In this document: in pieces, positions 2,836 to 64,000 of the stretch | How the letters are laid out: each line of letters opens with the position of its first letter | Position numbering within the stretch: position 1 is the first letter of the stretch | NCBI RefSeq assembly: GCF_041248615.1 | Contig: NZ_CP158426.1 | From: Escherichia coli | Lineage (GTDB): Bacteria > Pseudomonadota > Gammaproteobacteria > Enterobacterales > Enterobacteriaceae | DNA length: 64,000 bases | Direction: 5' to 3' (one strand) | Notes under the pieces: generated by a model | The model's input: only the letters and a program-made list of their open reading frames with translations | The model's database searches: none | Told to the model about the DNA's origin: nothing | Program-made: the position numbers and the translations under genes

Positions 2836-2980
2836 TGGGGCTGTAACGGTAAAGCCCTCACCGAAGCGAGGGCTTGAAGGAGAAGGGTTATGATGCGACT
2901 TGTCATCATACTGATTGTACTGTTACTCATAAGTTTCAGCGCTTATTAACAGTCAGTCTCAGGGGAGGAGCAATCCTCCC
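2836..2980 (-). ncRNA. sibC: SibC antisense sRNA (antitoxin to ibsC); boundaries approximate
   Basis: Sib RNAs are encoded opposite ibs ORFs (established); stem-loops flank the ibsC ORF (gccctcaccgaagcgagggc, gggaggagcaatcctccc); ends not determinable from sequence alone. Confidence 0.45.
2890..2949 (+). CDS. ibsC: type I toxin IbsC, 19-aa hydrophobic peptide (MMRLVIILIVLLLISFSAY)
   Basis: short ORF with SD aaggagaaggg upstream; sequence recognised as Ibs family; lies in the serA–ygfA spacer as in K-12. Confidence 0.75.
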   Translation: MMRLVIILIVLLLISFSAY

Positions 2981-3049
2981 TTACCCTTACTCACTAAATT
3001 AGGTCAAAGAATCAACGATGTCAATCAGGGCGATGCAGGTGTGTCGCCC

Positions 3050-3670: not shown

Positions 3671-3856
3671 AGGGAATCTCCGAGATGCCGCCGCAGGCTG
3701 TAACCCTTGAACCCTTGGTTCAAGGTGAATGTGTCGTCGCAGTTTTAAGGCTTCTCGGACGGACCGAGCATGCTCACCAACCGCGGAGCGCCACATTCTT
3801 GTGGTATGAAATATCGGCTCAGGGGACTGGCCCGCTTGCGAACATCTCAGAGAAAT
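3671..3856 (-). ncRNA. ssrS: 6S RNA
   Basis: reverse complement reads AUUUCUCUGAGAUGUUCGCAAGCGGGCCAGUCCCCUGAGCC...GGAGAUUCCCU, matching 6S RNA from memory; immediately upstream of and co-oriented with ygfA. Confidence 0.92.
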
Positions 3857-21611: not shown

Positions 21612-23345
21612 GTGAAACAACAGATACAACTTCGTCGCCGTGAAGTCGATGAAACGGCAGACTTGCCCGCTGAATTGCCTCCCTTGCTGCGCCGTTTATA
21701 CGCCAGCCGGGGCGTGCGCAGTGCGCAAGAACTGGAACGCAGTGTTAAAGGTATGTTGCCCTGGCAGCAACTGAGCGGCGTCGAAAAGGCCGTTGAGATC
21801 CTTTACAACGCTTTTCGCGAAGGAACGCGGATTATTGTGGTCGGCGATTTTGACGCCGACGGCGCGACCAGCACGGCTCTAAGCGTGCTGGCGATGCGCT
21901 CGCTTGGTTGCAGCAATATCGACTATCTGGTACCAAACCGTTTCGAAGACGGTTACGGCTTAAGCCCGGAAGTAGTCGATCAGGCCCATGCCCGTGGCGC
22001 GCAGTTAATTGTCACGGTGGATAACGGTATTTCCTCCCATGCGGGCGTTGAACACGCTCGCTCGTTGGGCATTCCGGTTATTGTTACCGATCACCATTTG
22101 CCGGGCGAAACATTACCCGCAGCGGAAGCGATCATTAACCCTAACTTGCGCGACTGTAATTTCCCGTCGAAATCACTGGCAGGCGTGGGTGTGGCGTTTT
22201 ATCTGATGCTGGCGCTGCGCACCTTTTTGCGCGATCAGGGCTGGTTTGATGAGCGTGGCATCGCAATTCCTAACCTGGCAGAACTGCTGGATCTGGTCGC
22301 GCTGGGAACAGTGGCGGACGTCGTGCCGCTGGACGCTAATAATCGCATTCTGACCTGGCAGGGGATGAGTCGCATCCGTGCCGGAAAGTGCCGTCCAGGG
22401 ATTAAAGCGCTGCTGGAAGTGGCAAACCGTGATGCACAAAAACTCGCCGCCAGCGATTTAGGTTTTGCGCTGGGGCCACGTCTCAATGCTGCCGGACGAC
22501 TGGACGATATGTCCGTCGGTGTGGCGCTCTTGCTGTGCGACAACATCGGCGAAGCGCGCGTGCTGGCAAATGAACTCGATGCGCTAAACCAGACGCGAAA
22601 AGAGATCGAACAAGGAATGCAAGTTGAAGCCCTGACCCTGTGCGAGAAACTGGAGCGAAGTCGCGACACGCTACCCGGCGGGCTGGCAATGTATCACCCC
22701 GAATGGCATCAGGGCGTTGTCGGTATTCTGGCTTCGCGCATCAAAGAGCGTTTTCACCGTCCGGTTATCGCCTTTGCGCCAGCAGGTGATGGTACGCTGA
22801 AAGGTTCAGGTCGCTCCATTCAGGGGCTGCATATGCGTGATGCACTGGAGCGATTAGACACACTCTACCCTGGCATGATACTGAAGTTTGGCGGTCATGC
22901 GATGGCGGCGGGTTTGTCGCTGGAAGAGGATAAATTCGAACTCTTTCAACAACGGTTTGGCGAGCTGGTTACCGAGTGGCTGGACCCTTCGCTATTGCAA
23001 GGCGAAGTGGTGTCAGACGGCCCGTTAAGCCCGGCCGAAATGACCATGGAAGTGGCGCAGCTGCTGCGCGATGCTGGCCCGTGGGGGCAGATGTTCCCGG
23101 AGCCGCTGTTTGATGGTCATTTCCGTCTGCTGCAACAGCGGCTGGTGGGCGAACGTCATTTGAAAGTCATGGTCGAACCGGTCGGCGGCGGTCCGCTGCT
23201 GGATGGTATTGCTTTTAATGTCGATACCGCCCTCTGGCCGGATAACGGCGTGCGCGAAGTGCAACTGGCTTACAAGCTCGATATCAACGAGTTTCGCGGC
23301 AACCGCAGCCTGCAAATTATCATCGACAATATCTGGCCAATTTAG
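21612..23345 (+). CDS. recJ: ssDNA-specific 5'-3' exonuclease RecJ
   Basis: 577-aa GTG-initiated ORF MKQQIQLRRREVDETADLPAELPPL... Confidence 0.95.
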   Translation: MKQQIQLRRREVDETADLPAELPPLLRRLYASRGVRSAQELERSVKGMLPWQQLSGVEKAVEILYNAFREGTRIIVVGDFDADGATSTALSVLAMRSLGCSNIDYLVPNRFEDGYGLSPEVVDQAHARGAQLIVTVDNGISSHAGVEHARSLGIPVIVTDHHLPGETLPAAEAIINPNLRDCNFPSKSLAGVGVAFYLMLALRTFLRDQGWFDERGIAIPNLAELLDLVALGTVADVVPLDANNRILTWQGMSRIRAGKCRPGIKALLEVANRDAQKLAASDLGFALGPRLNAAGRLDDMSVGVALLLCDNIGEARVLANELDALNQTRKEIEQGMQVEALTLCEKLERSRDTLPGGLAMYHPEWHQGVVGILASRIKERFHRPVIAFAPAGDGTLKGSGRSIQGLHMRDALERLDTLYPGMILKFGGHAMAAGLSLEEDKFELFQQRFGELVTEWLDPSLLQGEVVSDGPLSPAEMTMEVAQLLRDAGPWGQMFPEPLFDGHFRLLQQRLVGERHLKVMVEPVGGGPLLDGIAFNVDTALWPDNGVREVQLAYKLDINEFRGNRSLQIIIDNIWPI

Positions 23346-23435
23346 CGTCATCTTCTCTATAAAAAAGAGCGTGGATTGGGTACAATCCCGCTCTTATCAC
23401 CGCATTTTGACTAGCTCAATAAAAGAAATCAGACC

Positions 23436-24534
23436 ATGTTTGAAATTAATCCGGTAAATAATCGCATTCAGGACCTCACGGAACGCTCCGACGTTCTTAG
23501 GGGGTATCTTTGACTACGACGCCAAGAAAGAGCGTCTGGAAGAAGTAAACGCCGAGCTGGAACAGCCGGATGTCTGGAACGAACCCGAACGCGCACAGGC
23601 GCTGGGTAAAGAGCGTTCCTCCCTCGAAGCCGTTGTCGACACCCTCGACCAAATGAAACAGGGGCTGGAAGATGTTTCTGGTCTGCTGGAACTGGCTGTA
23701 GAAGCTGACGACGAAGAAACCTTTAACGAAGCCGTTGCTGAACTCGACGCCCTGGAAGAAAAACTGGCGCAGCTTGAGTTCCGCCGTATGTTCTCTGGCG
23801 AATATGACAGCGCCGACTGCTACCTCGATATTCAGGCGGGGTCTGGCGGTACGGAAGCACAGGACTGGGCGAGCATGCTTGAGCGTATGTATTTGCGCTG
23901 GGCAGAATCGCGTGGTTTCAAAACTGAAATCATCGAAGAGTCGGAAGGTGAAGTGGCGGGTATTAAATCCGTGACGATCAAAATCTCCGGCGATTACGCT
24001 TACGGCTGGCTGCGTACAGAAACTGGCGTTCACCGCCTGGTGCGTAAGAGCCCGTTTGACTCCGGCGGTCGTCGCCACACGTCGTTCAGCTCCGCGTTTG
24101 TTTACCCGGAAGTTGATGATGATATCGATATCGAAATCAATCCGGCGGATCTGCGCATCGACGTTTATCGCGCATCCGGCGCGGGCGGTCAGCACGTTAA
24201 CCGTACCGAATCTGCGGTGCGTATTACTCACATCCCAACCGGGATCGTGACTCAGTGCCAGAACGACCGTTCCCAGCACAAGAACAAAGACCAGGCCATG
24301 AAGCAGATGAAAGCGAAGCTTTATGAACTGGAGATGCAGAAGAAAAATGCTGAGAAACAGGCGATGGAAGATAACAAATCTGACATCGGCTGGGGCAGCC
24401 AGATTCGTTCTTATGTCCTTGATGACTCCCGCATTAAAGATCTGCGCACCGGGGTAGAAACCCGCAACACGCAGGCCGTGCTGGACGGCAGCCTGGATCA
24501 ATTTATCGAAGCAAGTTTGAAAGCAGGGTTATGA
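23436..24534 (+). CDS. prfB: peptide chain release factor 2; programmed +1 frameshift (frame 0 is 23436..23510, then +1 frame 23512..24534), 365 aa
   Basis: [25 protein letters not shown] then in-frame TGA at 23511-23513; the +1 frame continues [11 protein letters not shown]... and joins ORF 23653..24534. Confidence 0.93.
23499..23514 (+). promoter_or_regulatory. prfB autoregulatory +1 frameshift site
   Basis: sequence AGG GGG TAT CTT TGA C: internal SD-like element, slippery CUU, in-frame UGA in poor context. Confidence 0.9.
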
Positions 24535-24543
24535 GGAACCAAC

Positions 24544-26061
24544 ATGTCTGAACAACACGCACAGGGCGCTGACGCGGTAGTCGATCTTAACAATGAACTG
24601 AAAACGCGTCGTGAGAAGCTGGCGAACCTGCGCGAGCAGGGGATTGCCTTCCCGAACGATTTCCGTCGCGATCATACCTCTGACCAATTGCACGCAGAAT
24701 TCGACGGTAAAGAGAACGAAGAACTGGAAGCGCTGAACATCGAAGTCGCCGTTGCCGGCCGCATGATGACCCGTCGTATTATGGGTAAAGCGTCTTTCGT
24801 TACCCTGCAGGACGTTGGCGGTCGCATTCAGTTGTACGTTGCCCGTGACGATCTGCCGGAAGGCGTTTACAACGAGCAGTTCAAAAAATGGGACCTCGGT
24901 GACATCCTCGGCGCGAAAGGTAAACTGTTCAAAACCAAAACTGGCGAACTGTCTATCCACTGCACCGAGCTGCGTCTGCTGACCAAAGCACTGCGTCCGC
25001 TGCCGGACAAATTCCACGGCTTGCAGGACCAGGAAGCGCGCTATCGTCAGCGTTATCTGGATCTCATCTCTAACGATGAATCCCGCAACACCTTTAAAGT
25101 GCGCTCGCAGATCCTCTCTGGTATTCGTCAGTTCATGGTGAATCGCGGCTTTATGGAAGTTGAAACGCCGATGATGCAGGTGATCCCTGGCGGTGCCGCT
25201 GCGCGTCCGTTTATCACTCACCATAACGCGCTGGATCTCGACATGTACCTGCGTATCGCGCCGGAACTGTACCTCAAGCGTCTGGTGGTCGGTGGCTTCG
25301 AGCGTGTATTCGAAATCAACCGTAACTTCCGTAACGAAGGTATTTCCGTACGTCATAACCCAGAGTTCACCATGATGGAACTCTATATGGCTTACGCAGA
25401 TTACAAAGATCTGATCGAGCTGACCGAATCGCTGTTCCGTACTCTGGCACAGGATATTCTCGGTAAGACGGAAGTGACCTACGGCGACGTGACGCTGGAC
25501 TTCGGTAAACCGTTCGAAAAACTGACCATGCGTGAAGCGATCAAGAAATATCGTCCGGAAACCGACATGGCGGATCTGGACAACTTCGACTCTGCGAAAG
25601 CGATTGCTGAATCTATCGGCATCCACGTTGAGAAGAGCTGGGGTCTGGGCCGTATTGTTACCGAGATCTTCGAAGAAGTGGCAGAAGCACATCTGATCCA
25701 GCCGACCTTCATTACTGAATATCCGGCAGAAGTTTCTCCGCTGGCGCGTCGTAACGACGTTAACCCGGAAATCACAGACCGCTTTGAGTTCTTTATCGGT
25801 GGTCGTGAAATCGGTAACGGCTTTAGCGAGCTGAATGACGCGGAAGATCAGGCGCAGCGCTTCCTGGATCAGGTTGCCGCGAAAGACGCAGGCGACGACG
25901 AAGCGATGTTCTACGACGAAGATTACGTCACCGCACTGGAACATGGCTTACCGCCGACAGCAGGTCTGGGAATTGGTATCGACCGTATGGTAATGCTGTT
26001 CACCAACAGCCATACCATCCGCGACGTTATTCTGTTCCCGGCGATGCGTCCGGTGAAATAA
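24544..26061 (+). CDS. lysS: lysine--tRNA ligase
   Basis: 505-aa [36 protein letters not shown]... Confidence 0.97.
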
Positions 26062-26081
26062 GCATTACGTTATGCTCACAA

Positions 26082-26108
26082 CCCCGGCAAATGTCGGGGT
26101 TTTTTATT
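26082..26108 (+). terminator. rho-independent terminator after lysS
   Basis: hairpin ccccggcaaatgtcgggg followed by ttttttattt. Confidence 0.85.
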
Positions 26109-60658: not shown

Positions 60659-60732
60659 GCGGGCGTAGTTCAATGGTAGAACGAGAGCTTCCCAAGCTCT
60701 ATACGAGGGTTCGATTCCCTTCGCCCGCTCCA
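60659..60732 (+). tRNA. glyU: tRNA-Gly (anticodon CCC)
   Basis: GCGGGCGTAGTTCAATGGTAGAACGAGAGCTTCCCAAGCTCTATACGAGGGTTCGATTCCCTTCGCCCGCTCCA; cloverleaf with anticodon loop CUUCCCAAG and encoded CCA. Confidence 0.95.
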
Positions 60733-60747
60733 GAATCTCCCCTGGTG

Positions 60748-60770
60748 GAGAAGACTAAAAAAGTCTTCTC
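60748..60770 (+). terminator. hairpin after glyU
   Basis: gagaagac-taaaaaa-gtcttctc perfect stem; no clear T tract. Confidence 0.5.
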
Positions 60771-61229
60771 TGTCAGCAACTTAAACAGTTACCTATTTAA
60801 TTTGCTTAGGAGTTCTACCATTGTGATCCGCCCTTAGTAACTGTCACGTTAAGTTACACGGTGAGATGACAGTATAACCTAACGTTGGCGGCAGTTGCAC
60901 CTCTCACACCGCGATAGCACAACGTGAAGATAAAGCCCATCCTGGCATTGTAATGTCATCGACAGACTGAACACACGCATTTAAGCCCGATGTGCGGCCT
61001 TGTGGCTGCGTAAACAGGTTTATGGTGATATTGGTCCTTGCAAACCATATGCAAGCTCTATCAGCGTTTCAGCCACGCTCCCAACGGGTACACGGTTATC
61101 CTGATAAGGTGTGATCTTTCTGACAATCTGATGAAGTCGCTACGCTCCCGCTTGTTGCTGTATCACCAACGGGGCTTTATGGTTTCTATTGTCTATAATA
61201 ATCTCACAATTCCCCTGCATGAGGTTGAT

Positions 61230-61436
61230 ATGACTGTTAGCTACAAGATTACTTATGAGCATAGAGACGGTGATCAAATTAGAATGGAAGAGGTTTTATT
61301 CCATTCAGAGCATGAACCAACAAAAGATGAAATTCATGATGCAGTAAGAAAAGATACTGTGAGATTTAATTCTCCATCTAATGGAGTAACGGCTGTTTCA
61401 GGGTTTAAAGTGATTTCGGTTGTCCCTGTTCCATGA
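61230..61436 (+). CDS. hypothetical small protein (68 aa)
   Basis: ATG preceded by gagg SD; the longer 132-aa version of ORF 61038..61436 has no convincing start context; convergent hairpin at the 3' end. Confidence 0.35.
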   Translation: MTVSYKITYEHRDGDQIRMEEVLFHSEHEPTKDEIHDAVRKDTVRFNSPSNGVTAVSGFKVISVVPVP

Positions 61437-61447
61437 ATGGTTATAGA

Positions 61448-61464
61448 AGGGGCTGGAAGCCCCT
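61448..61464. terminator. hairpin between the convergent small ORF and lipoprotein gene
   Basis: aggggct-gga-agcccct. Confidence 0.5.
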
Positions 61465-61469
61465 AATTA

Positions 61470-61790
61470 TTACTTCTTAATATCGCCAGTGCATTGATAT
61501 TCGATAGTCACAAGTGTTTGCATACAACCAGATGAAGAAGGTTGTGAACATTGAGAAGTGAATCCACCAAAAGGCTCGGCTCCTGAATATCCCCAAGCGG
61601 CACAACGCGCTTTGGCTGCATTCATGCCTTGTTGTGGATCTACAACAGGACTTTCAAACATACCGTAAGAATAACTCATCCTAACTGTGCCGTCTGATTT
61701 GCTTCCACCAGTTGGAACGAGTTGTTTTTTTGTTGCACATCCAGAAATAATCAATGTTGAAGCAAGTAACAGCATTAAACTTTTGCGCAT
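61470..61790 (-). CDS. cysteine-rich predicted lipoprotein (106 aa)
   Basis: signal peptide with lipobox LIISGC; four further Cys in the mature part; no family recognised. Confidence 0.6.
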   Translation of the reverse strand: MRKSLMLLLASTLIISGCATKKQLVPTGGSKSDGTVRMSYSYGMFESPVVDPQQGMNAAKARCAAWGYSGAEPFGGFTSQCSQPSSSGCMQTLVTIEYQCTGDIKK

Positions 61791-62442
61791 GTAAATAATC
61801 CCAAGAGATAATGGTTATGTATTGATTTAAAGCGTTTTTAGATTAATGCATTAACTTAGCAAAATTAAGTCTTTTCTGATTGTTTGCAGAGTAAAAATGA
61901 GTTGCTTTCGAAATTATTTCGGATGTTTATTGTATTACGGTTTTTCAAACCGTCTAACTATTGTCGCTATTGAATGGGCAATAATAGCAAGAGGATTCAT
62001 TTCGTCATTGGAGGCAACAAAAAGTCGGTAACTGATAGCTACAACGAATGAAGCAATAACGAGAAAGCGGATAGTGCTAAGATGTTTTGAAGATAAATGC
62101 ATAACGCCCCCTAAATGAATGTGAGGGGGATTAAATCATGCAAATTTGTTGTGTGCAATACTGGTAATTTATCCTAATAGTCTACTATTCACCTCAATCT
62201 ACGTCAACCAATATTTGATGTAGATTTGATTTTCTTTTAAAAACAATATTTTGCAATTTGTTGGGTTTTGGGGTTAGGTTGTTTTTTGGACGTTTCCATC
62301 AAGTGTAAAGATACGTTTAGCCTTCATAGTGAGTTCAGTTACTGTCTTTTTCTCTGAAATCGGCGCATACGTGATCATCGCTTAACGAGAAGAGCAGCGC
62401 CGTCAGGTCCATGCAGCGACAATTCTGAAATATCAGGAGGCA

Positions 62443-62994
62443 TTACGCTTCCTGCTCTTTCTTGATACGTTGCACCGTTTGTGTGCTGACACTGAAATCT
62501 TTTGCTACGCTCCGAATTGATCCACCATTCGCGAGAGCGGCAGCAATTCCCGCTCGATCAATTGCTTTTCCATTACCACGTTTTGCTATACGTCCAGCGG
62601 CCTTAGCTGCGGCGATCCCCTCACGCTGGCGCTCAAGCATCATTTCACGTTCCATTTGTGCCACTGCTGCAAGCACTGTGAGCATCATATTCCCTGCGGG
62701 AGAGTTCTTCCCTGTCTTAAAGTCTTCTTTATGGAAATGCACAGACACGCCGCGCTTTGTTAATTGCTCAACCGTTGCCAGTAGGTCGGCTGTATTACGG
62801 CAAAGTCGATCAATACTGTGAACATGCAAAACATCACCTTCCCGCACATAGTTCATCATTGCCTCAAACTGTGGGCGCTGGGTATTCTTGCCTGACGCTT
62901 TATCTTCAAAGACTTTATCAAGAGCTACTCCAGCTAATTGACGGTCTGTGTTTTGTTGCACAGTCGATACCCTAATGTATCCAATATTAGCCAT
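62443..62994 (-). CDS. serine recombinase, resolvase/invertase family (183 aa)
   Basis: N-terminal catalytic motif GYIRVSTVQQNTDRQ with the active-site Ser, FEDKASG, DRLCR, and a C-terminal HTH (GGSIRSVAKDFSVSTQTVQRI). Confidence 0.85.
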   Translation of the reverse strand: MANIGYIRVSTVQQNTDRQLAGVALDKVFEDKASGKNTQRPQFEAMMNYVREGDVLHVHSIDRLCRNTADLLATVEQLTKRGVSVHFHKEDFKTGKNSPAGNMMLTVLAAVAQMEREMMLERQREGIAAAKAAGRIAKRGNGKAIDRAGIAAALANGGSIRSVAKDFSVSTQTVQRIKKEQEA

Positions 62995-63019
62995 TTTCTT
63001 TATTCCTTCTGTGTTGATT

Positions 63020-63130
63020 TGTGTGTAGTGATTATTGATCGTGTTGATTAGGTGTGTAAAGGACTTTTTTCACTACGAAATTCGAAGGTTTTTAGTGTGG
63101 TGATTTAGCCTGCTTTATCACTACACGTCT
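63020..63130. promoter_or_regulatory. structured inverted-repeat region upstream of the recombinase gene (candidate res-like / autoregulatory site)
   Basis: 10-bp perfect inverted repeat gtgtagtgat (63023-63032) / atcactacac (63117-63126), internal cactac/gtagtg motifs, and a central cgaaattcg palindrome (63076-63084). Confidence 0.4.
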
Positions 63131-63516
63131 TGCATGAGAATCATGTAGTTACATTTTGGTAAAATTAGCAAGCTATTAAATAGTGTGTTTATTTTGAAAA
63201 AATAATTTTTTGTTGCATTAAAGGAAACTTGTTCAATAAATGATAGAACGTTTATTGAGCAACAATTTTGCAGTGATGCGCTATATGCCGCATTACATAA
63301 GGCTTTGCTGATGATAATGTAAAAGTGAAGAAAGCTAACATTGCTCTTTTAAGCTACTTTTCATTGAATTTTTAGTATGGAATTACATAGGGATAAACTA
63401 TGAATATTCTATGATTTACACGAGATATTCTTGCTGTTTAATTCCGGCTTTGGAGATCAGGCATTCGCAAGAATACGCTAACGCGTTGCCTGAAAAGCCA
63501 TTGCACATAATAGAGG

Positions 63517-63835
63517 TGAGCGTATAGCGAACTATCAATGTGATCATTGCACGAATGATAATGAGTGGATATAGATTCTATATATCGTTAGATTGTAGTT
63601 TGATAGTTAATGTGTAATGTAGATTGTATGAGCGTATAGCGAATGTTAGTTAGATCAACAACAAACTAACCTTTAAATCTCTTTTATCTTCTCATAGATA
63701 TGGCTATGCGTAGCAACCGAAGGTTAGCCAATCATCTCTATGCAGCCGTAAGGCTGTTTTGCATGTAATAGTTGTTTGTTGTTGTTAGACAGTTACCAAT
63801 TTATAGATCAGAGATAGATGTGAGCGTTGAGCGAT
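63517..63835 (+). repeat. iteron-like direct repeats (3 copies)
   Basis: tgagcgtatagcgaa at 63517-63531 and 63629-63643 (exact), degenerate tgagcgttgagcgat at 63821-63835. Confidence 0.6.
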
Positions 63836-63924
63836 ACACTAATCATAACAACATCTTCTTACTTTTTAGTTAGTTGTTAGTAGGTTATTGTTATGCGCGC
63901 TATTAGCGCATGTATAAAGGTATC

Positions 63925-63999
63925 ATTTTTATCTAAAGGGCTTTAGACATTTTTGATACCTTTTTCATCTCTAAAAAAGTGTAATTTTTATCTAAAGGG
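63925..63999 (+). repeat. short tandem direct repeats atttttatctaaaggg
   Basis: exact 16-mer at 63925-63940 and 63984-63999, with a degenerate copy tttttcatctctaaaaaa between them. Confidence 0.6.
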
Positions 64000-64000
64000 G

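Follow-up and report, generated by a model that had tools for sequence, protein, structure and literature searches.

The prfB gene of an Escherichia coli strain carries an intact programmed +1 frameshift site of the known type

The window analyzed here, by which we mean the whole stretch of 64,000 nucleotides, contains the release factor 2 (RF2) gene prfB between recJ and lysS, in the order recJ-prfB-lysS known from E. coli. The coding sequence of prfB is divided between two reading frames, and a set of short sequence elements is found where the two frames meet. The features of the locus are as follows:

21612-23345: recJ, upstream of prfB
23436..23510, plus strand: prfB segment 1, frame-0 codons 1-25 (ATG ... 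CTT), identical to residues 1-25 of the PDB RF2 chains; first piece of the RefSeq join
23499..23504, plus strand: internal Shine-Dalgarno-like AGGGGG, within codons 22-23 (AGG GGG), as read from the sequence
23505..23507, plus strand: 3-nt spacer TAT, the Tyr24 codon, which would occupy the E site once CUU has reached the P site
23508..23511, plus strand: slippery CTT T, that is, the P-site Leu25 codon CUU and the U of the stop
23511..23514, plus strand: RF2-specific in-frame stop TGA and the following C (UGAC, a weak termination context)
23512..24534, plus strand: prfB segment 2, +1 frame, codons 26-365 (GAC ...) and the stop TGA at 24532-24534; second piece of the RefSeq join
24544..26061, plus strand: lysS (lysine--tRNA ligase), starting 9 nt past the prfB stop; part of the operon context and outside the frameshift device

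Frame 0 begins with the ATG at 23436-23438, runs for 25 sense codons that end in GYL, and is closed by the TGA at 23511-23513, which is codon 26. The +1 frame, read from the GAC at 23512, has 340 sense codons before the TGA at 24532-24534, and the joined product has 365 amino acids. The original prediction, made from the sequence alone, had described a frame 0 ending in GYL and stopping at UGA after 25 codons, an AGGGGG 3 nt upstream, and a +1 frame of 340 codons. The coordinates and the translation agree with all of these statements, the AGGGGG being placed at 23499-23504 with the TAT spacer before CTT. The same prediction had also stated that the open reading frame (ORF) track showed only the downstream frame, and this holds as well: apart from the 25-codon ORF at 23436..23513, the only entry of the mechanical ORF list at the locus is a 293-aa ORF at 23653..24534. 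The +1 frame opens at 23458, directly past the TAA at 23455-23457, and no ATG, GTG or TTG is present in it from there up to 23653. Because the +1 frame lacks a start codon before 23653, a naive ORF list can give only the 25-aa and the 293-aa ORFs.

The surroundings of the gene were also inspected. The only terminator-like hairpin (26080-26101) lies after lysS, and this position, together with the 9-nt gap between the genes, is consistent with a prfB-lysS operon. A simple scan of the recJ-prfB interval with the sigma-70 consensus revealed no promoter-like site. Where prfB ends and lysS begins (24532-24546), a GAGGA sequence overlaps the prfB stop codon. Very long antisense ORFs were observed opposite prfB (23497-24501, minus strand, 334 aa) and opposite lysS (24529-25944, minus strand, 471 aa); neither of them matched Pfam, and most likely they are not genes but shadow ORFs that arise from the codon pattern of prfB and lysS themselves.

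In order to establish the identity of the joined product, it was aligned with RF2 proteins, as the original prediction had proposed. Residues 1-365 align with residues 1-365 of the E. coli RF2 chains 1gqe_A and 1ml5_Z in the PDB, with one difference per chain (L294V in 1gqe_A and A246T in 1ml5_Z), and the junction ...LRGYL|DYDAK... (L25|D26) lies within an unbroken stretch of identity to these chains. The junction peptide GYLDYDAK was reportedly described in the original work on E. coli RF2. The product scores 525.9 bits with the NCBIfam model TIGR00020 (prfB), for which the cut-off is 370, and it stays under the cut-offs of the RF1 models. Segment 2 contains the RF2 motifs SPF (205-207) and GGQ (250-252), as well as Ala246, encoded by GCA at 24171-24173.

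The two-segment structure is also present in public annotation. In the RefSeq record NZ_LT599825.1 (isolate NRZ14408), prfB at 1047436..1048534, corresponding to 23436..24534 of the window, is a two-piece join labelled "programmed frameshift", and the same kind of annotation was found in TUM9803, NGF1, AH21I008, TBE6 and K-12 W3110, that is, in all the records inspected. The alignment and the two-piece RefSeq join thus support the predicted classic RF2 programmed +1 frameshift with a two-segment coding sequence. The frameshift site is intact, and the locus does not hold a contiguous in-frame prfB.

For the analysis of the junction, a prfB recoding site was defined by an RF2 product; a stop close to codon 26 that RF2 can read (UGA or, rarely, UAA, but never UAG); CUU U at the stop; an SD-like element 3 nt upstream of CUU; a C after the stop; and colinearity of the joined product. 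All of these are present here. The cassette forms the 16-mer AGGGGG-TAT-CTT-TGA-C at 23499-23514, in which AGGGGG lies 3 nt before the shift codon and 6 nt before the stop. The pattern AGGGGGNNNCTTTGAC, with 13 specified bases, has a single occurrence in the 64 kb window, also when one mismatch is allowed, and 0.04 occurrences are expected from shuffled sequences. Assuming complementarity of the SD-like element to the 3' end of the 16S rRNA, as known for E. coli (PMC12421855), AGGGGG and the U at 23505 could form pairs at 7 positions; no rRNA genes are located within the 64 kb window. A search of 23000-25000 against Rfam at E<=1 matched no family; Rfam has no curated model of this site, as expected for a signal that resides in linear sequence, and folding of 23490-23589 (z = -0.75; 45 of 200 shuffles folded equally well or better) gave no sign of a stimulatory structure. 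Both null results fit a signal that consists of linear sequence alone.

We consider the locus, with a probability of about 0.98, to be an ordinary E. coli RF2 gene whose expression depends on the canonical programmed +1 frameshift of the ribosome, and the sequence contains nothing that speaks against this. According to this interpretation, a ribosome that starts at the ATG at 23436 would come to have codon 25 (CUU, Leu) in its P site and UGA in its A site. Plentiful RF2 would recognize the UGA, despite a weak context in which C follows, and release the 25-residue peptide; with RF2 scarce, the ribosome would pause at the UGA. Pairing of AGGGGG(U) with the 16S anti-Shine-Dalgarno sequence would then destabilize the E-site/P-site geometry and displace the E-site tRNA, the P-site tRNA-Leu would move forward by one base and pair with UUU in place of CUU, and GAC (Asp26) would enter the A site, allowing the 365-residue RF2 to be completed. 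As RF2-dependent termination and the +1 slip would compete at the UGA, the level of RF2 would limit the synthesis of RF2. The slip, the role of the SD-like sequence and RF2 autoregulation are established in E. coli (PMC12421855), and a drop in frameshift efficiency with rising RF2 has been found experimentally in this species (PMC12421855, PMC5373646). We infer from this published E. coli work that the slip, the contribution of SD pairing and the autoregulation operate here too, and the frameshift efficiency and the RF2 feedback are assumed to resemble those of other E. coli strains.

The conservation of the site within the species was analyzed by megablast against complete E. coli genomes. 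The region was found in 5,425 of 5,426 genomes, with prfB as a single-copy match in every matching genome, and it is 100% identical to that of the window in two of them (NZ_CP135671.1 and NZ_LT599825.1). The 70 bases at 23476-23545 are present in 5,425 genomes, of which 4,410 are identical to the window and 1,015 have one to three changes. In three genomes taken as a sample of these variants, the changes are CTC>CTA (Leu14) and TAC>TAT (Tyr27), both of them synonymous third-position changes located outside the cassette. One complete genome of the 5,426 gave no prfB match, and one match was on a record typed as a plasmid.

Additionally, the RF2 motif D-W-x-x-M-L-x-R-M-Y was searched for in species-representative genomes, by means of a degenerate DNA pattern chosen independently of the cassette. 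The scan gave at least 120 loci, which form a convenience sample and do not amount to a census; 115 of those listed had sufficient upstream DNA and were used. By phmmer against the RF2 of the window, all 120 listed loci are RF2 relatives (E <= 2.7e-28), including the 21 listed loci without literal SPF and GGQ, some of which are truncated at the end of the locus, while the string is absent from others. Among the matches listed, 77 of 115 (67%) have a [C/T]TT-T[G/A]A cassette whose phase connects a short zero-frame leader with the RF2 frame, and the remaining listed loci comprise 37 contiguous in-frame genes and one unclear case. Of the 115 listed loci, 75 have CTTTGA in the correct phase; for the two control phases the numbers are 0 and 1. 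Among the 77 cassette-bearing loci listed, CTTT is present in 76, TGA in 76, the following C in 71 and the exact CTTTGAC in 69. When the 75 listed CTTTGA loci were combined with the window, GGAGG or GGGGG was found at exactly -11..-7 from the stop in 48 of the 76 sequences, and the offset in the window is the same. The cassette of the window lies 117 codons upstream of the DW motif, which is the modal position (51 of the 77 cassette loci among the matches listed). In the matches listed, the zero-frame leader has about 20-30 codons and always abuts the +1 frame at CTTTGA, and the 3-nt spacing between the SD-like and the slippery sequence is kept across bacteria, a conservation that has also been published (PMC12421855). 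The figures of the sample are in line with those of a published 12,753-genome survey, in which a premature prfB stop was found in 64%, AGGGGG-N3-CTTTGAC was described as hyper-conserved, and the stop was always readable by RF2 (PMC12421855).

One locus of the sample touches on a further statement in that survey, in which the prfB frameshift motif is reported to be absent throughout the Actinomycetota (PMC12421855). The contig CALAEC010000152.1 ("uncultured actinobacterium", 69.5% GC; our locus L010) has a canonical AAGGAG-TAC-CTTTGAC at positions 1322-1347 of the locus, preceded by a 22-codon leader. Its RF2 is nearer to sampled loci of the Bacillota type than to the four Actinomycetota-labelled loci that were checked (L011, L025, L027 and L067). 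This may reflect a loose bin label or a real exception among the Actinomycetota.

Three other explanations of the frame break were weighed. A one-base break 75 nt into an essential gene does imitate an indel error in a naive ORF call, and the break could accordingly be read as a sequencing or assembly indel, or as a true inactivating mutation that has left a prfB pseudogene. However, 5,425 of 5,426 complete E. coli genomes, all assembled independently, share this break together with an identical cassette, prfB being a single-copy match in every one of them, and a break at the homologous position is found in 77 of 115 RF2 genes of unrelated bacteria among the matches listed. Moreover, the break is located exactly in AGGGGG-N3-CTTTGAC, for which 0.04 chance matches are expected in the window. 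We regard this explanation as effectively refuted. The presence in the ORF list of a 293-aa ORF starting at the ATG at 23653 could instead suggest two independent genes, namely a small ORF of 25 codons and an RF2 with a shorter N terminus, initiated within the +1 frame. Such an RF2 would have no ATG, GTG or TTG available between 23458 and 23653, that is, before residue 73, and initiation at 23653 would remove residues 1-72, yet these residues match the solved full-length RF2 exactly and span the junction. The frame-0 leader peptide belongs to the conserved RF2 N terminus, and in the cross-species matches listed the leader always abuts the +1 frame at CTTTGA; a pair of separate genes is therefore hardly credible.

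The frame could also be restored in the RNA, by transcriptional slippage or editing, and not by the ribosome, given that slippage of RNA polymerase on long homopolymers does recode some bacterial genes. The T run at this site has a length of only three (CTTT), which makes transcriptional slippage unlikely, and the conserved RF2-specific stop, the C and the SD-like element at a fixed 3-nt spacing are signals of translation and play no part in transcription. Mutational and in vitro studies in the literature place the event on the ribosome (PMC12421855), and restoration at the RNA level is in our opinion extremely improbable. Programmed +1 frameshifting by the ribosome is thus the explanation that we retain.

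The prfB frameshift site found here has been described before and has its public annotation at these coordinates, the sequence gives no hint of a new mechanism, and an intact site in another E. coli isolate adds nothing new in itself. Its value is mainly that of a quality check: the apparent frame break in the essential prfB gene is neither an error nor a pseudogene, and gene callers that give just the 293-aa downstream ORF mis-describe the locus. The gene is also the standard example of one whose product governs its translation, in competition with a slip of the ribosome.

Several features were observed elsewhere in the window. A tRNA-Gly(CCC) gene at 60659-60732 is followed by a fall of the GC content to 0.385-0.445 (region 60659-64000), and this low-GC segment encodes a YecR-like lipoprotein (61470-61790, minus strand) and a resolvase-type serine recombinase (62443-62994, minus strand). 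At least 80% of 60733-64000 is covered in only 90 of 5,426 E. coli genomes, and at the far end of the window 100% identity was found only with NZ_LT599825.1. TUM9803, which is identical at prfB, has ygeQ and IS1 in place of the segment that follows the tRNA-Gly gene in the window. The region 60659-64000 looks like a variable island adjoining a tRNA gene. Near the other end of the window, a Sib antitoxin RNA (2874-3024, minus strand, 133.8 bits) and 6S RNA/ssrS (3673-3856, minus strand, 139.8 bits) were detected, both with scores far over the Rfam gathering score.

Finally, the locus was compared to known systems. The closest of them, prfB of E. coli K-12, has the same recJ-prfB-lysS order and the same architecture of 25 + 340 codons, and the window is identical to W3110 over at least 23416-23560, including AGGGGGTATCTTTGAC. 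The proteins differ at residue 246, which is Thr in K-12 and Ala in the window; the strain thus does not derive from K-12. The usual and more active RF2 allele ("RF2-B") has Ala246, to which the less active Thr246 of K-12 is an exception, and with the Ala246 allele both the RF2 levels and frameshifting are lower (PMC5373646). It is very doubtful that Ala246 RF2, together with the stop-codon usage of this strain, might give a frameshift set-point measurably unlike that of laboratory strains, and such an altered set-point, if true, would repeat the published result for the E. coli B allele. The prfB cassettes of other bacteria have the same SD-like element, N3, CTTT, GA and C and the same position in the gene, with no substantive difference; the SD-like core is GGGGG in E. 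coli and GGAGG in many lineages. Another SD-stimulated recoding site is the -1 frameshift of dnaX, which shares an internal SD-like element upstream of the slippery site that modulates frame maintenance (PMC6321510). The shift in dnaX is -1 with an SD spacing of about 10 nt, whereas that in prfB is +1 with a spacing of 3 nt. Unlike dnaX, prfB has no downstream stem-loop (z = -0.75 for 23490-23589), and the stop codon in its A site is read by its own product.
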